Shown here in pieces: positions 4,569 through 61,420 of a stretch of DNA of 64,000 bases. Numbering within the stretch: the first letter of the stretch is position 1; each line of letters opens with the position of its first letter. The stretch lies in NCBI RefSeq assembly GCF_000026545.1, contig NC_011601.1. One strand, written 5' to 3'. Source of the DNA: Escherichia coli O127:H6 str. E2348/69. Its GTDB lineage: Bacteria > Pseudomonadota > Gammaproteobacteria > Enterobacterales > Enterobacteriaceae. Both the position numbers and the translations under genes were made by a program. The notes beneath the pieces are model-generated. The model was not told where the DNA came from, made no database searches, and was given only the letters and a program-made list of their open reading frames with translations.

Positions 4569-6500
4569 ATGAGTTATCAGGTCTTAGCCCGAAAATGGCG
4601 CCCACAAACCTTTGCTGACGTCGTCGGCCAGGAACATGTGCTGACCGCACTGGCGAACGGCTTGTCGTTAGGGCGTATTCATCATGCTTATCTTTTTTCC
4701 GGCACCCGTGGCGTCGGAAAAACCTCTATCGCCCGACTGTTGGCGAAGGGGCTAAACTGCGAAACCGGCATTACCGCGACGCCGTGCGGCGTGTGCGATA
4801 ACTGTCGTGAAATCGAGCAGGGGCGCTTTGTCGATCTGATTGAAATCGACGCCGCCTCGCGCACTAAAGTCGAAGATACCCGCGACCTGCTGGATAACGT
4901 TCAGTACGCTCCGGCGCGTGGTCGTTTCAAAGTTTATCTCATCGACGAAGTGCATATGCTGTCGCGTCACAGCTTTAACGCACTGTTAAAAACCCTTGAA
5001 GAGCCGCCAGAGCACGTTAAGTTTTTGCTGGCGACGACCGATCCGCAGAAATTGCCGGTGACGATTTTGTCACGCTGTCTGCAATTTCATCTCAAGGCGC
5101 TGGATGTCGAGCAAATTCGCCATCAGCTTGAGCACATCCTCAACGAAGAACATATCGCTCACGAGCCGCGGGCGCTGCAATTGTTGGCACGCGCCGCTGA
5201 AGGCAGCCTGCGAGATGCCTTAAGTCTGACCGACCAGGCGATTGCCAGCGGTGACGGCCAGGTTTCAACCCAGGCGGTCAGTGCGATGCTGGGTACGCTT
5301 GACGACGATCAGGCGTTATCGCTGGTTGAAGCGATGGTCGAGGCCAACGGCGAGCGCGTAATGGCGCTAATTAATGAAGCTGCTGCCCGTGGTATCGAGT
5401 GGGAAGCGTTGCTGGTGGAAATGCTCGGTCTGTTGCATCGTATTGCGATGGTACAACTTTCGCCTGCTGCTCTTGGCAACGACATGGCCGCCATTGAGCT
5501 GCGGATGCGTGAACTGGCGCGCACCATACCGCCGACGGATATTCAGCTTTACTATCAGACGCTGTTGATTGGTCGCAAAGAATTACCGTATGCGCCAGAC
5601 CGCCGTATGGGTGTTGAGATGACGCTGCTGCGCGCGCTGGCGTTCCATCCGCGTATGCCTCTGCCTGAGCCAGAAGTGCCACGCCAGTCCTTTGCGCCCG
5701 TTGCGCCAACGGCAGTAATGACGCCAACACAGGTGCCGCCGCAACCGCAATCAGCGCTGCAGCAGGCACCGACTGTACCGCTCCCGGAAACCACCAGCCA
5801 GGTGCTGGCGGCGCGCCAGCAGTTGCAGCGCGTGCAGGGAGCAACCAAAGCAAAAAAGAGTGAACCGGCAGCCGCTACCCGCGCGCGGCCGGTGAATAAC
5901 GCTGCGCTGGAAAGACTGGCTTCGGTCACCGATCGCGTTCAGGCGCGCCCGGTGCCATCGGCGCTGGAAAAAGCGCCAGCCAAAAAAGAAGCGTATCGCT
6001 GGAAGGCGACCACTCCAGTGATGCAGCAAAAAGAAGTGGTCGCCACGCCGAAGGCGCTGAAAAAAGCGCTGGAACATGAAAAAACGCCGGAACTGGCGGC
6101 GAAGCTGGCGGCAGAAGCCATTGAGCGCGACCCGTGGGCGGCTCAGGTGAGTCAACTTTCGCTACCAAAACTGGTCGAACAGGTGGCGTTAAATGCCTGG
6201 AAAGAGGAGAGCGACAACGCAGTATGTCTGCATTTGCGCTCCTCTCAGCGGCATTTGAACAACCGCGGCGCACAGCAAAAACTGGCTGAAGCGTTGAGCA
6301 CGTTAAAAGGTTCAACGGTTGAACTGACTATCGTTGAAGATGATAATCCCGCGGTGCGTACGCCGCTGGAATGGCGTCAGGCGATATACGAAGAAAAACT
6401 TGCGCAGGCGCGCGAGTCCATTATTGCGGATAATAATATTCAGACCCTGCGTCGATTCTTCGATGCGGAGCTGGATGAAGAAAGTATCCGCCCCATTTGA
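4569..6500 (+). CDS. dnaX: DNA polymerase III tau subunit (643 aa); gamma subunit made by -1 frameshift
   Basis: ORF track; AAA+ Walker A GTRGVGKT; slippery A AAA AAG at about 5852-5858 followed by a stem-loop. Confidence 0.95.
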   Translation: MSYQVLARKWRPQTFADVVGQEHVLTALANGLSLGRIHHAYLFSGTRGVGKTSIARLLAKGLNCETGITATPCGVCDNCREIEQGRFVDLIEIDAASRTKVEDTRDLLDNVQYAPARGRFKVYLIDEVHMLSRHSFNALLKTLEEPPEHVKFLLATTDPQKLPVTILSRCLQFHLKALDVEQIRHQLEHILNEEHIAHEPRALQLLARAAEGSLRDALSLTDQAIASGDGQVSTQAVSAMLGTLDDDQALSLVEAMVEANGERVMALINEAAARGIEWEALLVEMLGLLHRIAMVQLSPAALGNDMAAIELRMRELARTIPPTDIQLYYQTLLIGRKELPYAPDRRMGVEMTLLRALAFHPRMPLPEPEVPRQSFAPVAPTAVMTPTQVPPQPQSALQQAPTVPLPETTSQVLAARQQLQRVQGATKAKKSEPAAATRARPVNNAALERLASVTDRVQARPVPSALEKAPAKKEAYRWKATTPVMQQKEVVATPKALKKALEHEKTPELAAKLAAEAIERDPWAAQVSQLSLPKLVEQVALNAWKEESDNAVCLHLRSSQRHLNNRGAQQKLAEALSTLKGSTVELTIVEDDNPAVRTPLEWRQAIYEEKLAQARESIIADNNIQTLRRFFDAELDEESIRPI

Positions 6501-13809: not shown

Positions 13810-13925
13810 TCGGTTCGTAGGCCAGATAAGGCGTTCACGCCGCATCTGGCATTTTGCTTTCAATGCCTGATGCGACGCTGGCGCGTCTTATCAGGCCTAC
13901 ATATCCGCGCCTATTATCCGGCAAC
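13810..13925. repeat. REP/BIME elements between gsk and ybaL
   Basis: taggccagataaggcgttcacgccgcatctggca and gcctgatgcgacgctggcgcgtcttatcaggcctac. Confidence 0.7.
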
Positions 13926-18973: not shown

Positions 18974-19468
<495 letters not shown>

Positions 19469-19573
19469 TTAAACAAAAAACGAAGCAAGCATACGCCTGA
19501 TGGCGGTCCCAAAAAAAGAGTCATCTTGCCTAAGAGTATTGGCAGGATGGTGAGATTGAGCGACAATCGACTT

Positions 19574-19656
19574 ACACCGTCGCTTAAAGTGACGGCATAA
19601 TAATAAAAATATGAAATTCCTCTTTGACGGGCCAATAGCGATATTGGCCATTTTTT
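19574..19656 (+). ncRNA. chiX: ChiX (MicM/SroB) Hfq-dependent small RNA
   Basis: acaccgtcgcttaaagtgacggcataataataaaaatatgaaattcctctttgacgggccaatagcgatattggccattttttt in the ybaK-ybaP intergenic region, ending in a hairpin plus T-run; matches ChiX as I recall it; coordinates approximate. Confidence 0.65.
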
Positions 19657-20450
19657 TAGCGCAACATCTGCGGCAAATTCCCTTCTCCATACAGATGTAA
19701 AGCACCGACCGCGACCACATAGCGCCCCGGCGGCATGTCGCGTAATTTGTCCCGCCAGGCGAGATTTCGCTGATGCATCAGCACATCGTACAGCGACTGA
19801 CTGAATGTATTGGGCAGCGTTATTTCATTATTTTGCGGCGGCGCATTCAGCCACCAGCCCATCATTTGTTGCAGCAACCGTGCATTGGTGTGCCAGTGGG
19901 TCAGCGTATCGTCCAGCAGCGCCAGTCCTTTGTCAGGGAGCTGGAGCAACATGGCAATCTGTTTTTCTGCGCCTTCCAGTTCAATTACAGGTTTATGTTG
20001 TTGCTTCGCCGCCTGCAATAGCTGGTAATCGATACCATATTCTGCCCGCAGCCCCAGTTTTTGCGCCTGCGTCGCCTGAAGAACCATCGCGATTTGCCAC
20101 AACGGTTGAGTAGAAAAGAGTGACGGAGAAATGCCCATCTCCTGGCTAATGTGCTGCAGGTTTTGGAGTTGCTCCTCGCTAATGCGCTCTTCCAGTGCCT
20201 CGCAGGCAGGCAAATTGGCAAAAGGCGTATCGCTGGTGGAAACATCCGCCTCGACGATCAGCGCATCGGCGTTTTTGAGCTTTTTGAGCAAACGGGTGGG
20301 CAGGGGAGCCATATCGTGGCTACCCATATGAATACTGCCGATCAGATGAAAATGGCGATTGCCGGGAAGAGAGATATCGATAGCAGGCCAGGTGTAATGA
20401 TTACCGCGCAGCGCGGCCCAAAGCGTTTTTACCCGGTACAACAGATCCAT
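19656..20450 (-). CDS. ybaP: TraB/GumN-family protein YbaP, 264 aa
   Basis: ORF track; conserved position. Confidence 0.8.
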   Translation of the reverse strand: MDLLYRVKTLWAALRGNHYTWPAIDISLPGNRHFHLIGSIHMGSHDMAPLPTRLLKKLKNADALIVEADVSTSDTPFANLPACEALEERISEEQLQNLQHISQEMGISPSLFSTQPLWQIAMVLQATQAQKLGLRAEYGIDYQLLQAAKQQHKPVIELEGAEKQIAMLLQLPDKGLALLDDTLTHWHTNARLLQQMMGWWLNAPPQNNEITLPNTFSQSLYDVLMHQRNLAWRDKLRDMPPGRYVVAVGALHLYGEGNLPQMLR

Positions 20451-26521: not shown

Positions 26522-27252
26522 TTAAGGCTTGCGAAAATAGTCGTCCATTATTTTCGTCAGCTCCGGACGTTCCCCGTCATCATTGATGGCAAAATCCAGA
26601 AAAAAAGCATCTGCTTGCGGCGTTCGGTTTTGCGCCATCAACCGGAAGGTGAGGGGGCCTGACCAGGTTTCGGATGGGCTGATGTGCTTATCAGGGCCGA
26701 AACTCTCCCATGCGTTGGGCGGTAATGTTTTGCACGCGGTGAGTTTTGGTATGTGGTATTGCAGCTCTGTTTTGTGCAGACATTCCCCGCCAGGAAATAC
26801 CAGGGTTTGTTGCTCATCATTAAAATGGGTTGCCGTGCTGAGCACCAGTGTTTTGAGCGGTCGCCCTTCCAGCGCGGCGGCAGTAGCCTTATGGTGTCCG
26901 TCGAGCAGAACGCAGAGATAGGAATCAGGGAGATACCAGGCCAGAGCGCGGGCGATTCCAGTTTTCGAGAGCAGACAAAAACCGGGCGGCTCCCTGTTCA
27001 TCCTCCGCAAAACCGCTGTAGACAAATTCCGCACAGGTAGGGCAATCAGCCTCGGACCAGAAACGTATTAACGGGACATCCTTGCCAGCAGAGCGAATGG
27101 ATAAGACCGTGCGAGTGCGGATCGTAAATCACACATTGACGCAGAAATCCTTTCCCGGACTTCACCGAAAAAATGACGCCCGCAGCGGTATTTTTCAGCA
27201 GACGTACTTCAGGTTTTCGAAAGGGGAAAAAGCATGGCCACTCCTTAGCCAA
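26522..27252 (-). pseudogene. Hypothetical accessory gene of about 240 codons, split by an apparent frameshift near 27046-27068
   Basis: Two adjacent minus-strand ORFs (27046..27252 and 26522..27034) in different frames; the downstream frame stays open up to 27067; no family confidently recognised; stop abuts cueR stop. Confidence 0.45.
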
Positions 27253-27323
27253 AATTTCAGTTCCCTGAACTGTGCCAGAAAATTACGCTGGTGACTATTG
27301 CTCTGGAAATGGAAACGGTGTCC

Positions 27324-27530
27324 TTACCCATTAATCCCCGTTTGCACCGAAAGAATATGCTGCAAACTTTCTACCATTATGCGCCCCGACTGAAATAAGC
27401 CTTCCTGGATTTCGTTGTTAACATTCACAGCGTGAACCAGGGAGGCTAATAACACCACTTGCAAGAAGGCAAAAATAAACGCACCGATAATCATAATATG
27501 CGTCAGGGGGATTTTCCTTTGCTCCTTCAT
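27324..27530 (-). CDS. Small single-pass membrane protein (68 aa), hypothetical
   Basis: ORF track; one hydrophobic helix IIGAFIFAFLQVVLLASLV; start overlaps the stop of the upstream lipoprotein gene by 4 bp. Confidence 0.5.
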   Translation of the reverse strand: MKEQRKIPLTHIMIIGAFIFAFLQVVLLASLVHAVNVNNEIQEGLFQSGRIMVESLQHILSVQTGING

Positions 27531-27949
27531 TTTAAATAACCCACAAACTGGCCTTCTTTCATTAAGGCGACTTTTCCTGTGTGATGATAAACAATGACAT
27601 TATACAGACCCGACTGATAAACAGTAGCATCTTTATTGTCTTCATCAATTACACATAATGAATCATTGAGATAAGCAAAGTTCTTACTGCTCATTCTAAA
27701 GGTCATGCCAAATCCTTTATAAATGGCTTTCTTTGCCGCCTGGGCATGTTGTGCGGCTTCTGCATTTTTAAATGCCTGCGCCTCGGATGCACTTAAAATA
27801 GCCGTCTGACGCTGTTGTTCTGCGAGGTAACAGGTGTCATGGCTGACGCCCTGCGCCTGGCAATCTGCGATGCGGGAAGTGGGTGAACTACAGCCAGCCA
27901 GTAATATAACCGCCAGCAGGGAAAACGATTTAATGGAGCTATTCATCAT
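27527..27949 (-). CDS. Predicted lipoprotein (140 aa), hypothetical
   Basis: ORF track; signal peptide with lipobox LLAGC followed by S at +2; not a K-12 core protein I recognise. Confidence 0.6.
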   Translation of the reverse strand: MMNSSIKSFSLLAVILLAGCSSPTSRIADCQAQGVSHDTCYLAEQQRQTAILSASEAQAFKNAEAAQHAQAAKKAIYKGFGMTFRMSSKNFAYLNDSLCVIDEDNKDATVYQSGLYNVIVYHHTGKVALMKEGQFVGYLK

Positions 27950-28002
27950 TGTTAACCTTAAATAATGTGCGGAAAATTGCGAATAAGAAATTGCTGTTAA
28001 AA

Positions 28003-29019
28003 TTAGAACGAATATCCCACGCCGACACCCGCACCGAAATCAGATTGTGTATCCGCAGAAATACCTGCTTTAAGTACCGTATGCGTTCCGGCATTAAAAG
28101 ATGTTCCGACAGACACCGCAGATTCACCGTTAAAGGTTCCCGCTCCCGCTGAGACCATCATCAAGTCACCGGTTTTCACCTGTGGTTGTGAGGCGATAGC
28201 GATGGCAGATGCAGTTCCCGCATTGGCTTCTTTACGATTGTCCTCAACTTCGTTTTTTAGCGAACTGAAATGGTTATTGAGCGTGTTAATTTGCTGGCTG
28301 TTATCTGCAACCCGTTTTTGGGTGTTGGTTAACTGTTGCTGCGTTTGTGCGGAATCTTGTCTCAGACTTTCAATTTGCTCATGTGCCTGGACAGACTTCT
28401 GCGCCAGACTTTGCATTTGTTTATCGTATTGAGCCCTTTCTTTTTGCTGTTGTGCTGCCACATCGGTTGTCAGTGCATTCATTTTCTGCCCTTGTTCCGT
28501 GGTAGTGCGCTGATTAGCCTCATTTTGAGCCGCCAGCCTGGCATTAATCATCTCCTGATAATGCGCGGTATTTTGCGTATCTCCAGTCGCGGCGAGCGTT
28601 TTTTGTGTGGCTACGATCTGCGCCTGTTGCTCTGTAATTTGCGTTTGCTGGGCATCAGTTACCGTAGACTGTCGGGCGTTGATCATGCTCTGATAACGGG
28701 CGGTTGTCTGTACATCACCTGTAGCGGCAACGGTTTTTTGTCCTGCGTCAGGATCTGTCTGGACAGGGGGAGTCTGAGTGGTATCAGGTGTTTCAGAAGG
28801 GATGTAGTGATGTTCAGTCAAATAGGTATATGCAGCGGGGCTGTTGTCGGTGCGTTCTAAAAAGCGGGTAATCTTCTGCTCAATCTCCGATTGCGACATG
28901 CCCGAGTTAATGGCTGAAAGCTCTGTTGCCGCCGCTTCAATGGTATCACCAGCTAAAACAAAAGGGCTGGATGTTGCTGAAATTATGAGTGCCAGTAAAG
29001 CTACGTTTACAGTTTTCAT
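28003..29019 (-). CDS. Short trimeric-autotransporter-like protein with YadA-type C-terminal membrane anchor (338 aa)
   Basis: ORF track; N-terminal signal peptide, Q/T/A-rich coiled-coil repeats, C-terminus ...GESAVSVGTSFNAG...GAGVGVGYSF resembling the YadA anchor and ending in an aromatic residue. Confidence 0.7.
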   Translation of the reverse strand: MKTVNVALLALIISATSSPFVLAGDTIEAAATELSAINSGMSQSEIEQKITRFLERTDNSPAAYTYLTEHHYIPSETPDTTQTPPVQTDPDAGQKTVAATGDVQTTARYQSMINARQSTVTDAQQTQITEQQAQIVATQKTLAATGDTQNTAHYQEMINARLAAQNEANQRTTTEQGQKMNALTTDVAAQQQKERAQYDKQMQSLAQKSVQAHEQIESLRQDSAQTQQQLTNTQKRVADNSQQINTLNNHFSSLKNEVEDNRKEANAGTASAIAIASQPQVKTGDLMMVSAGAGTFNGESAVSVGTSFNAGTHTVLKAGISADTQSDFGAGVGVGYSF

Positions 29020-29386
29020 TCATTTTCTCTCGATCAAAATAAGTTGCATTAATGTTTCTATAAGAAACAAATAATATTGTTATTAAGAAATAAAATACGT
29101 TGCAATATGATCGAAATCTACGCCGCCATTTGTGTGATGTAAAGCGCATTTTTGTCTGTTGTAAGCGTAAATATCACCAATAAGAAACAAAAAATGTTTC
29201 TTTTATAAATTAAAAAGGAAAACATTTCGTGCTCTTTCAATGTAAAAAAGAGTAAAGACTTGTTTTGATAAGCGAAATAAATTCTGTTTCTGGACTAAAC
29301 GTGAACCGGTTCCTGATGTGTGCTAAAATGCGTTTCTTTGATAAATCTCAATTTTTAAGAGGTTTACGCCAGGCAGGAACATTTAA

Positions 29387-29749
29387 ATGAATGAATTTGA
29401 GAAGATTTTTAATGAAATGAATCTGGACCGGGCATTGCTACCGATCCTTTTTCGTTCGAACCGGTCAACAGTGTGGAAGTATTTAAGCGGCGATAGTACG
29501 GCTCCTGCCTCAGCTATGTCACTGATTATGCTGTTGCAGTTAATCCAGAAACGAAACCCCGATCTATTAGCCGAATGGTTAACGCTTTCTGATTTCACCA
29601 TTCCGCCAGAAGTTTACCTGGACCAGCCTGATTACTGGAAAGGGTGGGTGTATACCCAACACAAGGTCAATAAAAACGTCCTGGAATATCTAAAAAAACA
29701 TTATCCGGATGAAGACCAAAAAAGTATGGGTAAAGGCCGGGAAGAGTAA
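29387..29749 (+). CDS. Putative HTH DNA-binding regulator (120 aa), hypothetical
   Basis: ORF track; HTH-like segment RSNRSTVWKYLSGDSTAP; divergent from the autotransporter-like gene across a 370-bp AT-rich region. Confidence 0.45.
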   Translation: MNEFEKIFNEMNLDRALLPILFRSNRSTVWKYLSGDSTAPASAMSLIMLLQLIQKRNPDLLAEWLTLSDFTIPPEVYLDQPDYWKGWVYTQHKVNKNVLEYLKKHYPDEDQKSMGKGREE

Positions 29750-38289: not shown

Positions 38290-38400
<111 letters not shown>

Positions 38401-38498
38401 CAGTGTGCATTTTGGCAATAAATATGAAACCAACTGTCATGTCGGTTTTTTTAAAGGCCGAAGGTGGTAAACCTTCGGCCTTAGCTACGTTTCCTCAG

Positions 38499-38582
38499 TT
38501 ATTCAATAAATTGACGGATCAGTTCTAGCAGCGCGATTAGCGCCTTAAGAACGATGAGAACTTTATCGAGAAAAGTTTTCAT
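38499..38582 (-). CDS. Putative 27-aa amphipathic micro-protein (MKTFLDKVLIVLKALIALLELIRQFIE)
   Basis: Hand-translated; AAGGGAG Shine-Dalgarno 6 nt upstream of the ATG; followed downstream by a perfect 10-bp-stem hairpin (about 38456-38480). Confidence 0.35.
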   Translation of the reverse strand: MKTFLDKVLIVLKALIALLELIRQFIE

Positions 38583-38656
38583 CCGTTGCTCCCTTAAGGG
38601 AGAAAGACAATCACAGCTTACCCTTACGTTGCCTGTAACTATGATTTTCTTCATGT

Positions 38657-39958
38657 GCTAGATGAGGACTGCCTCTCTCCAAATTAGAGCACCAGAATCA
38701 GCACCACCTGTATCCTGACCAGGACTTAAAAGTACTTTTCCGCACTGCGGTAATCCCTTGAGGCAGTATCACTACTAGCGTCGGGATTGTATCGCCAACA
38801 TAGCTGTTGTGTAAGTTCACAGAGATATTGCAATTGCCTCCGGATAAGTAAGGGGAGATTGCACTATGCAAATGCAGCATCTGATGGTTGGCTATCCTAA
38901 GTACTACCAAACGGCCGATTATGCGTTGAGGCTTTCAGTGATGGCTGATATAGCAACAATGAGAATGAAGGCTCTGCACTTCTGGGATAAACACGGTATT
39001 TCTGCAGCTTCTGAAGCCTTTGGCGTGTCCTGCCGCACGCTTTACTGGTGGCGTCAGTTACTGAACAAGGAAGGACCTGAGGGGCTAATCCCGCACAGTA
39101 AGGCACCTCTGGTGCGACGAAAAAAACACTGGCATCCCGATGTGCTGAAAGAGATTCGACGCCTCAGGACAGAGCTGCCGAACCTCGGTAAAGAGCAGAT
39201 TTTTGTTCGCCTGAAGCCCTGGTGCGAACAGCGCTATCTGGCCTGTCCGAGTGTTTCCACCATCGGCAGAATGATCGCTGCCGCACATGATAAAATGCGG
39301 ATGATACCTGTGCGTCTGGGATCGCGGGGGAAGGCACTGCTTGTCAAAAAGCGGTCTGCCAAACCCCGCAGGCCAAAGCACTACCGCCCGGTAAAGACAG
39401 GTGAGCTCATTGGGATGGACGCCATTGAGCTCAGAATGGGCGAACTGCGTCGCTATGTCATCACCATGATCGACGAATGCAGCAATTACGCGCTGGCGCT
39501 GGCTGTGCCGTCACTCAACAGTGATATCGTCAATCACTTCTTCAGCCGCGCAGCCCGGTTGTTCCCGGTCGGTATCAGCCAGATAATCACAGATAACGGA
39601 AAAGAGTTCCTGGGAAACTTCGACAAAACGCTGCAGGAAGCCGCTATCAAACACCTCTGGACCTATCCCTACACGCCAAAAATGAACGCTATCTGTGAAC
39701 GTTTTAACCGGACGTTAAGAGAGCAGTTTATTGAATTTAATGAGATTTTACTCTTTGAAGATCTGGCGCTATTTAACCAGAAGCTGGCGGAATATCTGGT
39801 GCTGTATAACAGCAAAAGACCCCACAAGGCGCTCGCACTAATGACGCCCGTGGAATATATTTTAAAAGAGAATAAAAATTGCAATATGTGGTGGACCCAT
39901 ACAGCTGTTTGAATATGTAGGCATCCTGACTTATAATTCACTTGCTAGATGAGGACTG
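38657..39958 (+). mobile_element. Putative insertion sequence carrying one DDE transposase gene (IS481-like architecture); ends uncertain
   Basis: Transposase ORF bracketed by a 16-bp direct repeat tgctagatgaggactg at about 38657-38672 and 39943-39958; occupies the position where K-12 has the rhsD element. Confidence 0.45.
38866..39912 (+). CDS. DDE transposase, N-terminal HTH plus integrase-core (rve) domain, 348 aa
   Basis: ORF track; catalytic D (GMDAIE), D (ITDNGKEF) and E (ICERFNRT) with 35-residue D-to-E spacing. Confidence 0.7.
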   Translation: MQMQHLMVGYPKYYQTADYALRLSVMADIATMRMKALHFWDKHGISAASEAFGVSCRTLYWWRQLLNKEGPEGLIPHSKAPLVRRKKHWHPDVLKEIRRLRTELPNLGKEQIFVRLKPWCEQRYLACPSVSTIGRMIAAAHDKMRMIPVRLGSRGKALLVKKRSAKPRRPKHYRPVKTGELIGMDAIELRMGELRRYVITMIDECSNYALALAVPSLNSDIVNHFFSRAARLFPVGISQIITDNGKEFLGNFDKTLQEAAIKHLWTYPYTPKMNAICERFNRTLREQFIEFNEILLFEDLALFNQKLAEYLVLYNSKRPHKALALMTPVEYILKENKNCNMWWTHTAV

Positions 39959-40094
39959 TTTCATTTCTGCCCGGAACCACCAAGTCTTGGGCGGAAAAAA
40001 TAAAAAAACCGACTGTCATGTCGGTTTTTTTATATCTGTATTCTGGTGCAACCATTCTGTTCTCACGACAATCGCCGTTTCAGAATACCGCCCA

Positions 40095-52996: not shown

Positions 52997-53124
52997 CTAT
53001 TACCTTTAAAGCGGATGCGATTTATATCGCATCTTTTTTTACCTGAATTGACTACAAAAAAAGCCACGGAATAAACCGTGGCAAAATCCAACATAGCTAA
53101 AAATAATCAGGCGAGTGGTATGAC

Positions 53125-61214: not shown

Positions 61215-61420
61215 TGGCACATCTAGCCTGATGCGATGCTGGCGCGTCTTATCAGGTCTACAGGCGGTGTCGGAACGGTAGGCCGGATAAGGCGTTCACG
61301 CCGCATCCGGCAATCGGCACACCATGCCTGATGCGATGCTGGCGCATCTTATCAGGCCTACAGTCGGTGTTGGAACGGTAGGCCTGATAAGGCGTTCACG
61401 CCGCATGCGGCAAGAAAATG
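61215..61420. repeat. Tandem BIME: two roughly 100-bp units, each a REP pair
   Basis: gcctgatgcgatgctggcgcgtcttatcagg...taggccggataaggcgttcacgccgcatccggca repeated almost exactly. Confidence 0.8.

Follow-up and report, generated by a model that had tools for sequence, protein, structure and literature searches.

The locus described here lies between ybaK and ybaP in Escherichia coli O127:H6 strain E2348/69 (EPEC). All positions refer to the window, by which we mean the whole 64,000-nt stretch of DNA that was analyzed; window position x corresponds to position x + 448000 of NZ_LT827011.1. The entire window was scanned against Rfam 15 at gathering thresholds, and one of the seven matches was RF00368 (sroB), found on the plus strand at the 202-nt region between the two genes (19454-19655). 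The features of the locus are as follows:

18974-19453, minus strand: ybaK, Cys-tRNA(Pro)/Cys-tRNA(Cys) deacylase, the divergent upstream neighbor (ORF and RefSeq)
19539-19544 and 19562-19567, plus strand: putative sigma-70-like promoter, with TTGGCA as the -35 element, a 17-nt spacer, and GACAAT as the -10 element (consensus scan)
19574-19657, plus strand: chiX (sroB/micM/rybC) sRNA gene, 84 nt (RF00368 match and identity to K-12 b4585)
19577-19595, plus strand: 5' stem-loop, nt 4-11 paired with nt 15-22, loop UAA (MFE fold and covariation)
19599-19610, plus strand: A-rich linker AAU AAU AAA AAU, nt 26-37, presumed Hfq distal-face site (sequence)
19618-19631, plus strand: target-pairing (seed) region UCCUCUUUGACGGG, nt 45-58 (complementarity to chiP and chbBC)
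19630-19649, plus strand: intrinsic terminator hairpin GGCCAAUA-GCGA-UAUUGGCC (terminator scan and fold)
19651-19657, plus strand: U7 3' tail, nt 78-84, putative Hfq proximal-face site (sequence)
19656-20450, minus strand: ybaP, TraB/GumN family, the convergent downstream neighbor (ORF and RefSeq)

The RF00368 match covers the Rfam model over its full length (positions 1-83 of 83), with a score of 81.1 bits (gathering score, 44) and an E-value of 2.8e-10. ChiX, SroB, RybC, and MicM are names for one RNA (PMC4098024; PMC5006887). In K-12 MG1655, the ncRNA chiX (b4585) occupies 507204-507287, also in the ybaK-ybaP interval, and the E2348/69 sequence is identical to it at 83 of 84 positions. A second covariance model, built from the homologues described below, scored the E2348/69 gene at 105.1 bits. 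The initial annotation had recognized ChiX between ybaK and ybaP and had proposed an Infernal scan and an alignment to K-12 chiX as checks. The identification was borne out by the Rfam score, which is well over the gathering score, by the alignment, in which the single mismatch falls outside the pairing region and the terminator, and by the flanking genes. The interval that had been given for it, 19560-19660, did cover the gene, and it overshot by 14 nt of promoter sequence on one side and by 3 nt past the 3' end on the other. We conclude, with a probability of about 0.97, that 19574-19657 on the plus strand is ChiX, an 84-nt Hfq-dependent trans-acting sRNA. Its identity was already known, and the finding of this well-studied sRNA is real but ordinary. 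When the 84-nt sequence was used as a query, a chiX match was present in 5422 of the 5426 complete E. coli genomes and absent from the other four. Two of the 5422 matches were on plasmid-labelled records.

The E2348/69 RefSeq records hold no feature between ybaK and ybaP, in keeping with the earlier remark that a protein-only annotation would miss the gene. The same RefSeq/PGAP pipeline annotated rprA in this strain, as an antisense_RNA at NZ_LT827011.1 1801010-1801117, and likewise the dnaX frameshift element. The omission of chiX reflects how the pipeline chooses its features, not a missing signal. Protein-centered analyses of E2348/69 will read chiX as empty intergenic DNA, and the regulator overlooked in this way is one that controls chitosugar uptake and competes strongly for Hfq. 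Beyond annotation hygiene, the identification matters little. ChiX is among the best-characterized enterobacterial sRNAs, the textbook example of an sRNA that is itself controlled by a target-mimic decoy, and a model for class II Hfq binding.

The promoter-like site upstream of the gene matches the consensus at 9 of 12 positions and is at the right distance from the start, lying 7 nt upstream of the start in K-12. Going by the K-12 gene, transcription would begin at the A at 19574. Most Enterobacteriaceae loci among the matches listed have the sequence GAGCGACAAT upstream. The MFE fold of the RNA has an energy of -23.9 kcal/mol, compared to -12.95 ± 2.88 kcal/mol for shuffled sequences (z = -3.8), and none of 200 shuffles was as good. 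In this fold, nt 23-56 are unpaired between two hairpins. The second hairpin is the terminator, in which nt 57-64 pair with nt 69-76 to form a stem of 8 bp, 4 of them GC, followed by A77 and U78-U84. A terminator hairpin with a T-run next to the ybaP stop had been described in the initial annotation, and this is what we found: the hairpin occupies 19630-19649, the T7 run follows at 19651-19657, and the run overlaps the ybaP stop codon (complement of 19656-19658) by 2 nt. The same 2-nt overlap is present in K-12, where ybaP occupies 507286-508080. A seven-nucleotide single-stranded 3' tail has been described for ChiX (10.1101/2021.04.25.441314), and the U7 tail and terminator of E2348/69 agree with that description.

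Another possible explanation for the hairpin and T-run is that they are merely a terminator or 3'-end element of the neighboring genes, with no independent sRNA. The hairpin adjoins the ybaP stop codon and could be mistaken for a terminator shared by convergent genes, but a T-run follows it on the plus strand only; the minus strand has CGTCAAAGAGG and no terminator was called there. Nor is there an upstream plus-strand gene to terminate, since ybaK is on the minus strand. The promoter-like site, the extension of the Rfam match beyond the hairpin to the full 84 nt, and the covariation of the 5' stem-loop all speak against this explanation as well, and we consider it extremely unlikely compared to an independent sRNA gene, chiX.

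Homologues were collected by an exact-pattern scan for AAATTCCTCTTTGACNGGCC in one genome per species. This gave at least 120 loci, which span the Enterobacteriaceae, Yersiniaceae, Erwiniaceae, Hafniaceae, and Proteus. The pattern was the seed, and conservation of the seed within this set is therefore circular. Because the search pattern was the seed itself, the Rfam consensus, in which the seed positions are upper-case (conserved; AAAUUCCUCUUUGAC), provides the independent evidence for seed conservation. In 108 of 120 loci among the matches listed, ybaK is found upstream of the RNA gene and ybaP downstream of it, with both genes on the opposite strand. The 12 exceptions among these matches are six loci that are cut short on one side and six from Proteus.

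Several of these loci are unusual in other ways. In Proteus (L092, L099, L110, and L117; also L068 and L107), the ChiX-like RNA lies outside the ybaK-ybaP interval, and ybaK and ybaP, where found, are both 1.5-2.7 kb upstream on the same side. The 5' part of the Proteus RNA is longer and different. One locus from an assembly titled Chryseobacterium sp. 18061 (L113) has an Enterobacteriaceae-type ybaK-chiX-ybaP arrangement, and one titled Enterobacter ludwigii (L067) has a Pantoea-type ChiX region that is the same as those of L123 and L074. L113 and L067 are probably contaminated or mislabelled assemblies.

Covariation was used to evaluate the predicted structure. A MAFFT alignment of 106 homologues matched up the 3' arm of the 5' hairpin, yet it was unusable for counting the pairs of helix 1 (the 5' stem-loop): genera differ in the lengths of stem and loop, and this shifted their 5' arms relative to one another. 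A covariance model was built from 15 sequences of the same geometry and returned 83 matches, and 82 distinct Enterobacterales homologues were used. In this alignment, which is fitted to the model structure and so favors it, 94.7% of structure cells were paired, compared to 78.9% in shuffles, among the matches listed. Compensatory changes were present in 11 of the 16 pairs, and the covariation score was 0.340 versus 0.111, a value reached by none of 500 shuffles (82 homologues, among the matches listed). When the partners were slid by 1-3 columns, pairing fell to 21-50% and the covariation score collapsed. The effect is large despite the model-fitted alignment. Across the 82 homologues, all eight pairs of helix 1 change on both sides and 89% of its cells are paired; in helix 2 (the terminator), three of eight pairs have compensatory changes and 99% of cells are paired.

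These results also bear on the position of the seed, which the initial annotation had assigned to a C/A-rich stretch at the 5' end. The 5' end (ACACCGUCGC) is indeed C/A-rich. It forms the 5' arm of the stem-loop, however, and was rejected as the seed; its bases are paired in the fold and its sequence is not conserved. Because all eight helix 1 pairs covary, the 5' arm is free to vary while pairing is kept, and a seed would behave in the opposite way. The seed is instead internal and C/U-rich (nt 45-58), located just upstream of the terminator stem and running into it.

The RNA also contains an AUG at nt 38-40, and a small protein could be proposed to start there, instead of or beside a regulatory RNA. 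Mechanical ORFs of 61 and 83 aa on the minus strand overlap the region as well. We give almost no weight to a coding function. The plus-strand frame opened by this AUG runs into the terminator without a stop, and the AUG has no Shine-Dalgarno sequence ahead of it. The AUG is AAG in Serratia and AAC in Pantoea and is shifted in Yersinia, whereas the RNA downstream of it is conserved. The minus-strand ORFs span intergenic sequence that is not conserved. A regulatory RNA, ChiX, is the reading that we retain.

Next, pairing was examined with chiP and chb operon target sequences taken from the E2348/69 genome itself. ChiX nt 45-56 (UCCUCUUUGACG) are complementary, at all 12 positions, to the chiP leader at -19 to -8 (CGUCAAAGAGGA), a segment that includes the Shine-Dalgarno sequence AGAGGA. 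Nucleotides 47-58 (CUCUUUGACGGG) are a perfect 12-nt complement of the chbB-chbC spacer, the known decoy, and a second block of chbBC pairing, with ChiX nt 37-44 (8 nt), lies 2 nt further on. K-12 and E2348/69 have the same spacer sequence. With the sRNA limited to single-stranded nt 23-60, the chiP duplex was predicted at -21.2 kcal/mol and the chbBC duplex at -29.6 kcal/mol. Whole-molecule RNAduplex predictions for the chiP leader and the chbBC spacer over-extended into the hairpins and were dropped for the nt 23-60 duplexes and the exact-complement search; for chiP, the whole-molecule prediction was ahead of its shuffled controls by a modest margin only, and 27 of the 500 did as well.

In K-12 and Salmonella, ChiX is constitutive and, with Hfq, pairs at the chiP ribosome-binding site and blocks translation (PMC4098024; PMC7815308). 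It also silences chiP by enhancing Rho-dependent termination inside the gene (PMC4098024; PMC7815308). When chb mRNA is induced by chitobiose, the chbBC spacer pairs with ChiX, and the resulting decay of ChiX leads to de-repression of chiP; a fragment of the chiP leader, ChiZ, sponges ChiX as well (PMC4098024; PMC7815308). These two, chbBC and ChiZ, are the described sponges of ChiX (PMC7815308). By analogy to these organisms, from which we infer its transcription, Hfq binding, and regulation, E2348/69 ChiX would be expressed from its own sigma-70-like promoter and ended by the intrinsic terminator with its U7 tail. Together with Hfq, it would act on the chiP leader through translation block and Rho-dependent termination, keeping the chitoporin off. 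Chitosugars would induce the chb operon, whose chbBC spacer would pair with ChiX and cause its decay, turning chiP on, and ChiZ would be expected to promote ChiX decay too.

ChiX binds Hfq on its proximal as well as its distal face and dislodges other RNAs (PMC7987339; PMC5006887), and it is therefore a strong Hfq competitor. It reportedly carries four AAN motifs, which are needed to compete for the distal face (PMC7987339). The E2348/69 RNA has (AAN)4 and U7, and going by these sequence features it would belong to the class II Hfq-dependent sRNAs. As in K-12 and Salmonella, the U-tail would be on the proximal face and the AAN repeats on the distal face. Other class II sRNAs, such as MgrR, are alike in having an A-rich (AAN)n stretch and a 3' U-tail (PMC7987339), a likeness that is drawn here from sequence features. 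MgrR is a separate gene and has other targets, and the likeness is one of working mode only. ChiX also resembles sRNAs that are controlled by decoys or sponges, such as GcvB with SroC and RybB with 3'ETS-leuZ, in that activity is set by a target-mimic and not by transcription of the sRNA, although these are different RNAs and pathways from ChiX.

The E2348/69 and K-12 genes are alike in locus, 84-nt length, 5' stem-loop, pairing region, terminator, U7 tail, and ybaP overlap. K-12 differs in having A37 in the linker and G at -3, and in that chiX is annotated there but absent from the E2348/69 RefSeq records. The sole change within the RNA is thus A37U, at window position 19610. Outside the RNA, the base at -3 relative to the start of transcription is C in place of G, and two more changes are found further upstream between the genes, namely the loss of 1 nt from an A-run and an A to C substitution. 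Both promoter hexamers, like the pairing region and the terminator, are the same in the two strains. Full identity (100%) across the intergenic region was limited to three records, all of E2348/69.

One could argue from A37U in the linker and G to C at -3 that E2348/69 has a weakened or functionally altered chiX allele. Both changes from K-12 are real, and the exact 84-nt E2348/69 version is a minority allele: among the 5422 complete E. coli genomes with a match, only 382 have it. An altered allele is still very unlikely in our view, since A37U keeps the AAN register (AAA AAA becomes AAA AAU), nt 37 varies among genera, and neither the seed nor the terminator nor either promoter hexamer is altered. 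As U37 is found in E. albertii, E. whittamii, and Escherichia sp. E1V33 too, it is probably an old and tolerated state; these three and one further E. coli share it, and it may even be the ancestral one in Escherichia.

For an allele that we take to be a regular ChiX, the predicted effect of A37U is small. The predicted chbBC duplex has an energy of -29.6 kcal/mol with U37 versus -28.5 kcal/mol with the K-12 allele. U37 therefore adds one predicted A-U pair, and only in the decoy duplex. The core chiP helix (nt 45-56) is unchanged by A37U, and the whole predicted chiP duplex differs by 0.2 kcal/mol. These modelled energies leave some room, though we think it improbable, for A37U to slightly shift the chitosugar threshold for ChiX destruction and chiP de-repression in U37 lineages. 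This minority allele, with a predicted effect of one extra decoy base pair, is the only mildly new item at the locus.

Several other elements were observed elsewhere in the window. Rfam matches were obtained for STnc480 at 53052-53118 (84.1 bits), for naRNA4/CssrE REP-type elements at 13820-13897 (79.8 bits) and 61281-61358 (83.1 bits), and for the dnaX frameshift element at 5833-5897 (96.8 bits). Between ybbP and mnmH, the RefSeq annotation has a dinQ-like type I toxin gene (38499-38654, minus strand). An ES036 match was found at 38319-38361 on the minus strand and an AgrB match (RF02891, 53.6 bits) at 39945-40033 on the plus strand. A CDS for an IS481-family transposase (38866-39912, plus strand) lies between the dinQ-like gene and the AgrB match, and 38319-40033 looks like a DinQ/AgrB-type toxin-antisense locus that was split by an insertion sequence. 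Lastly, the block between cueR and ybbJ (26522-29749) contains frameshifted or hypothetical CDSs and a gene for a protein with a YadA C-terminal domain (trimeric autotransporter-like), and it may be a strain-specific islet.
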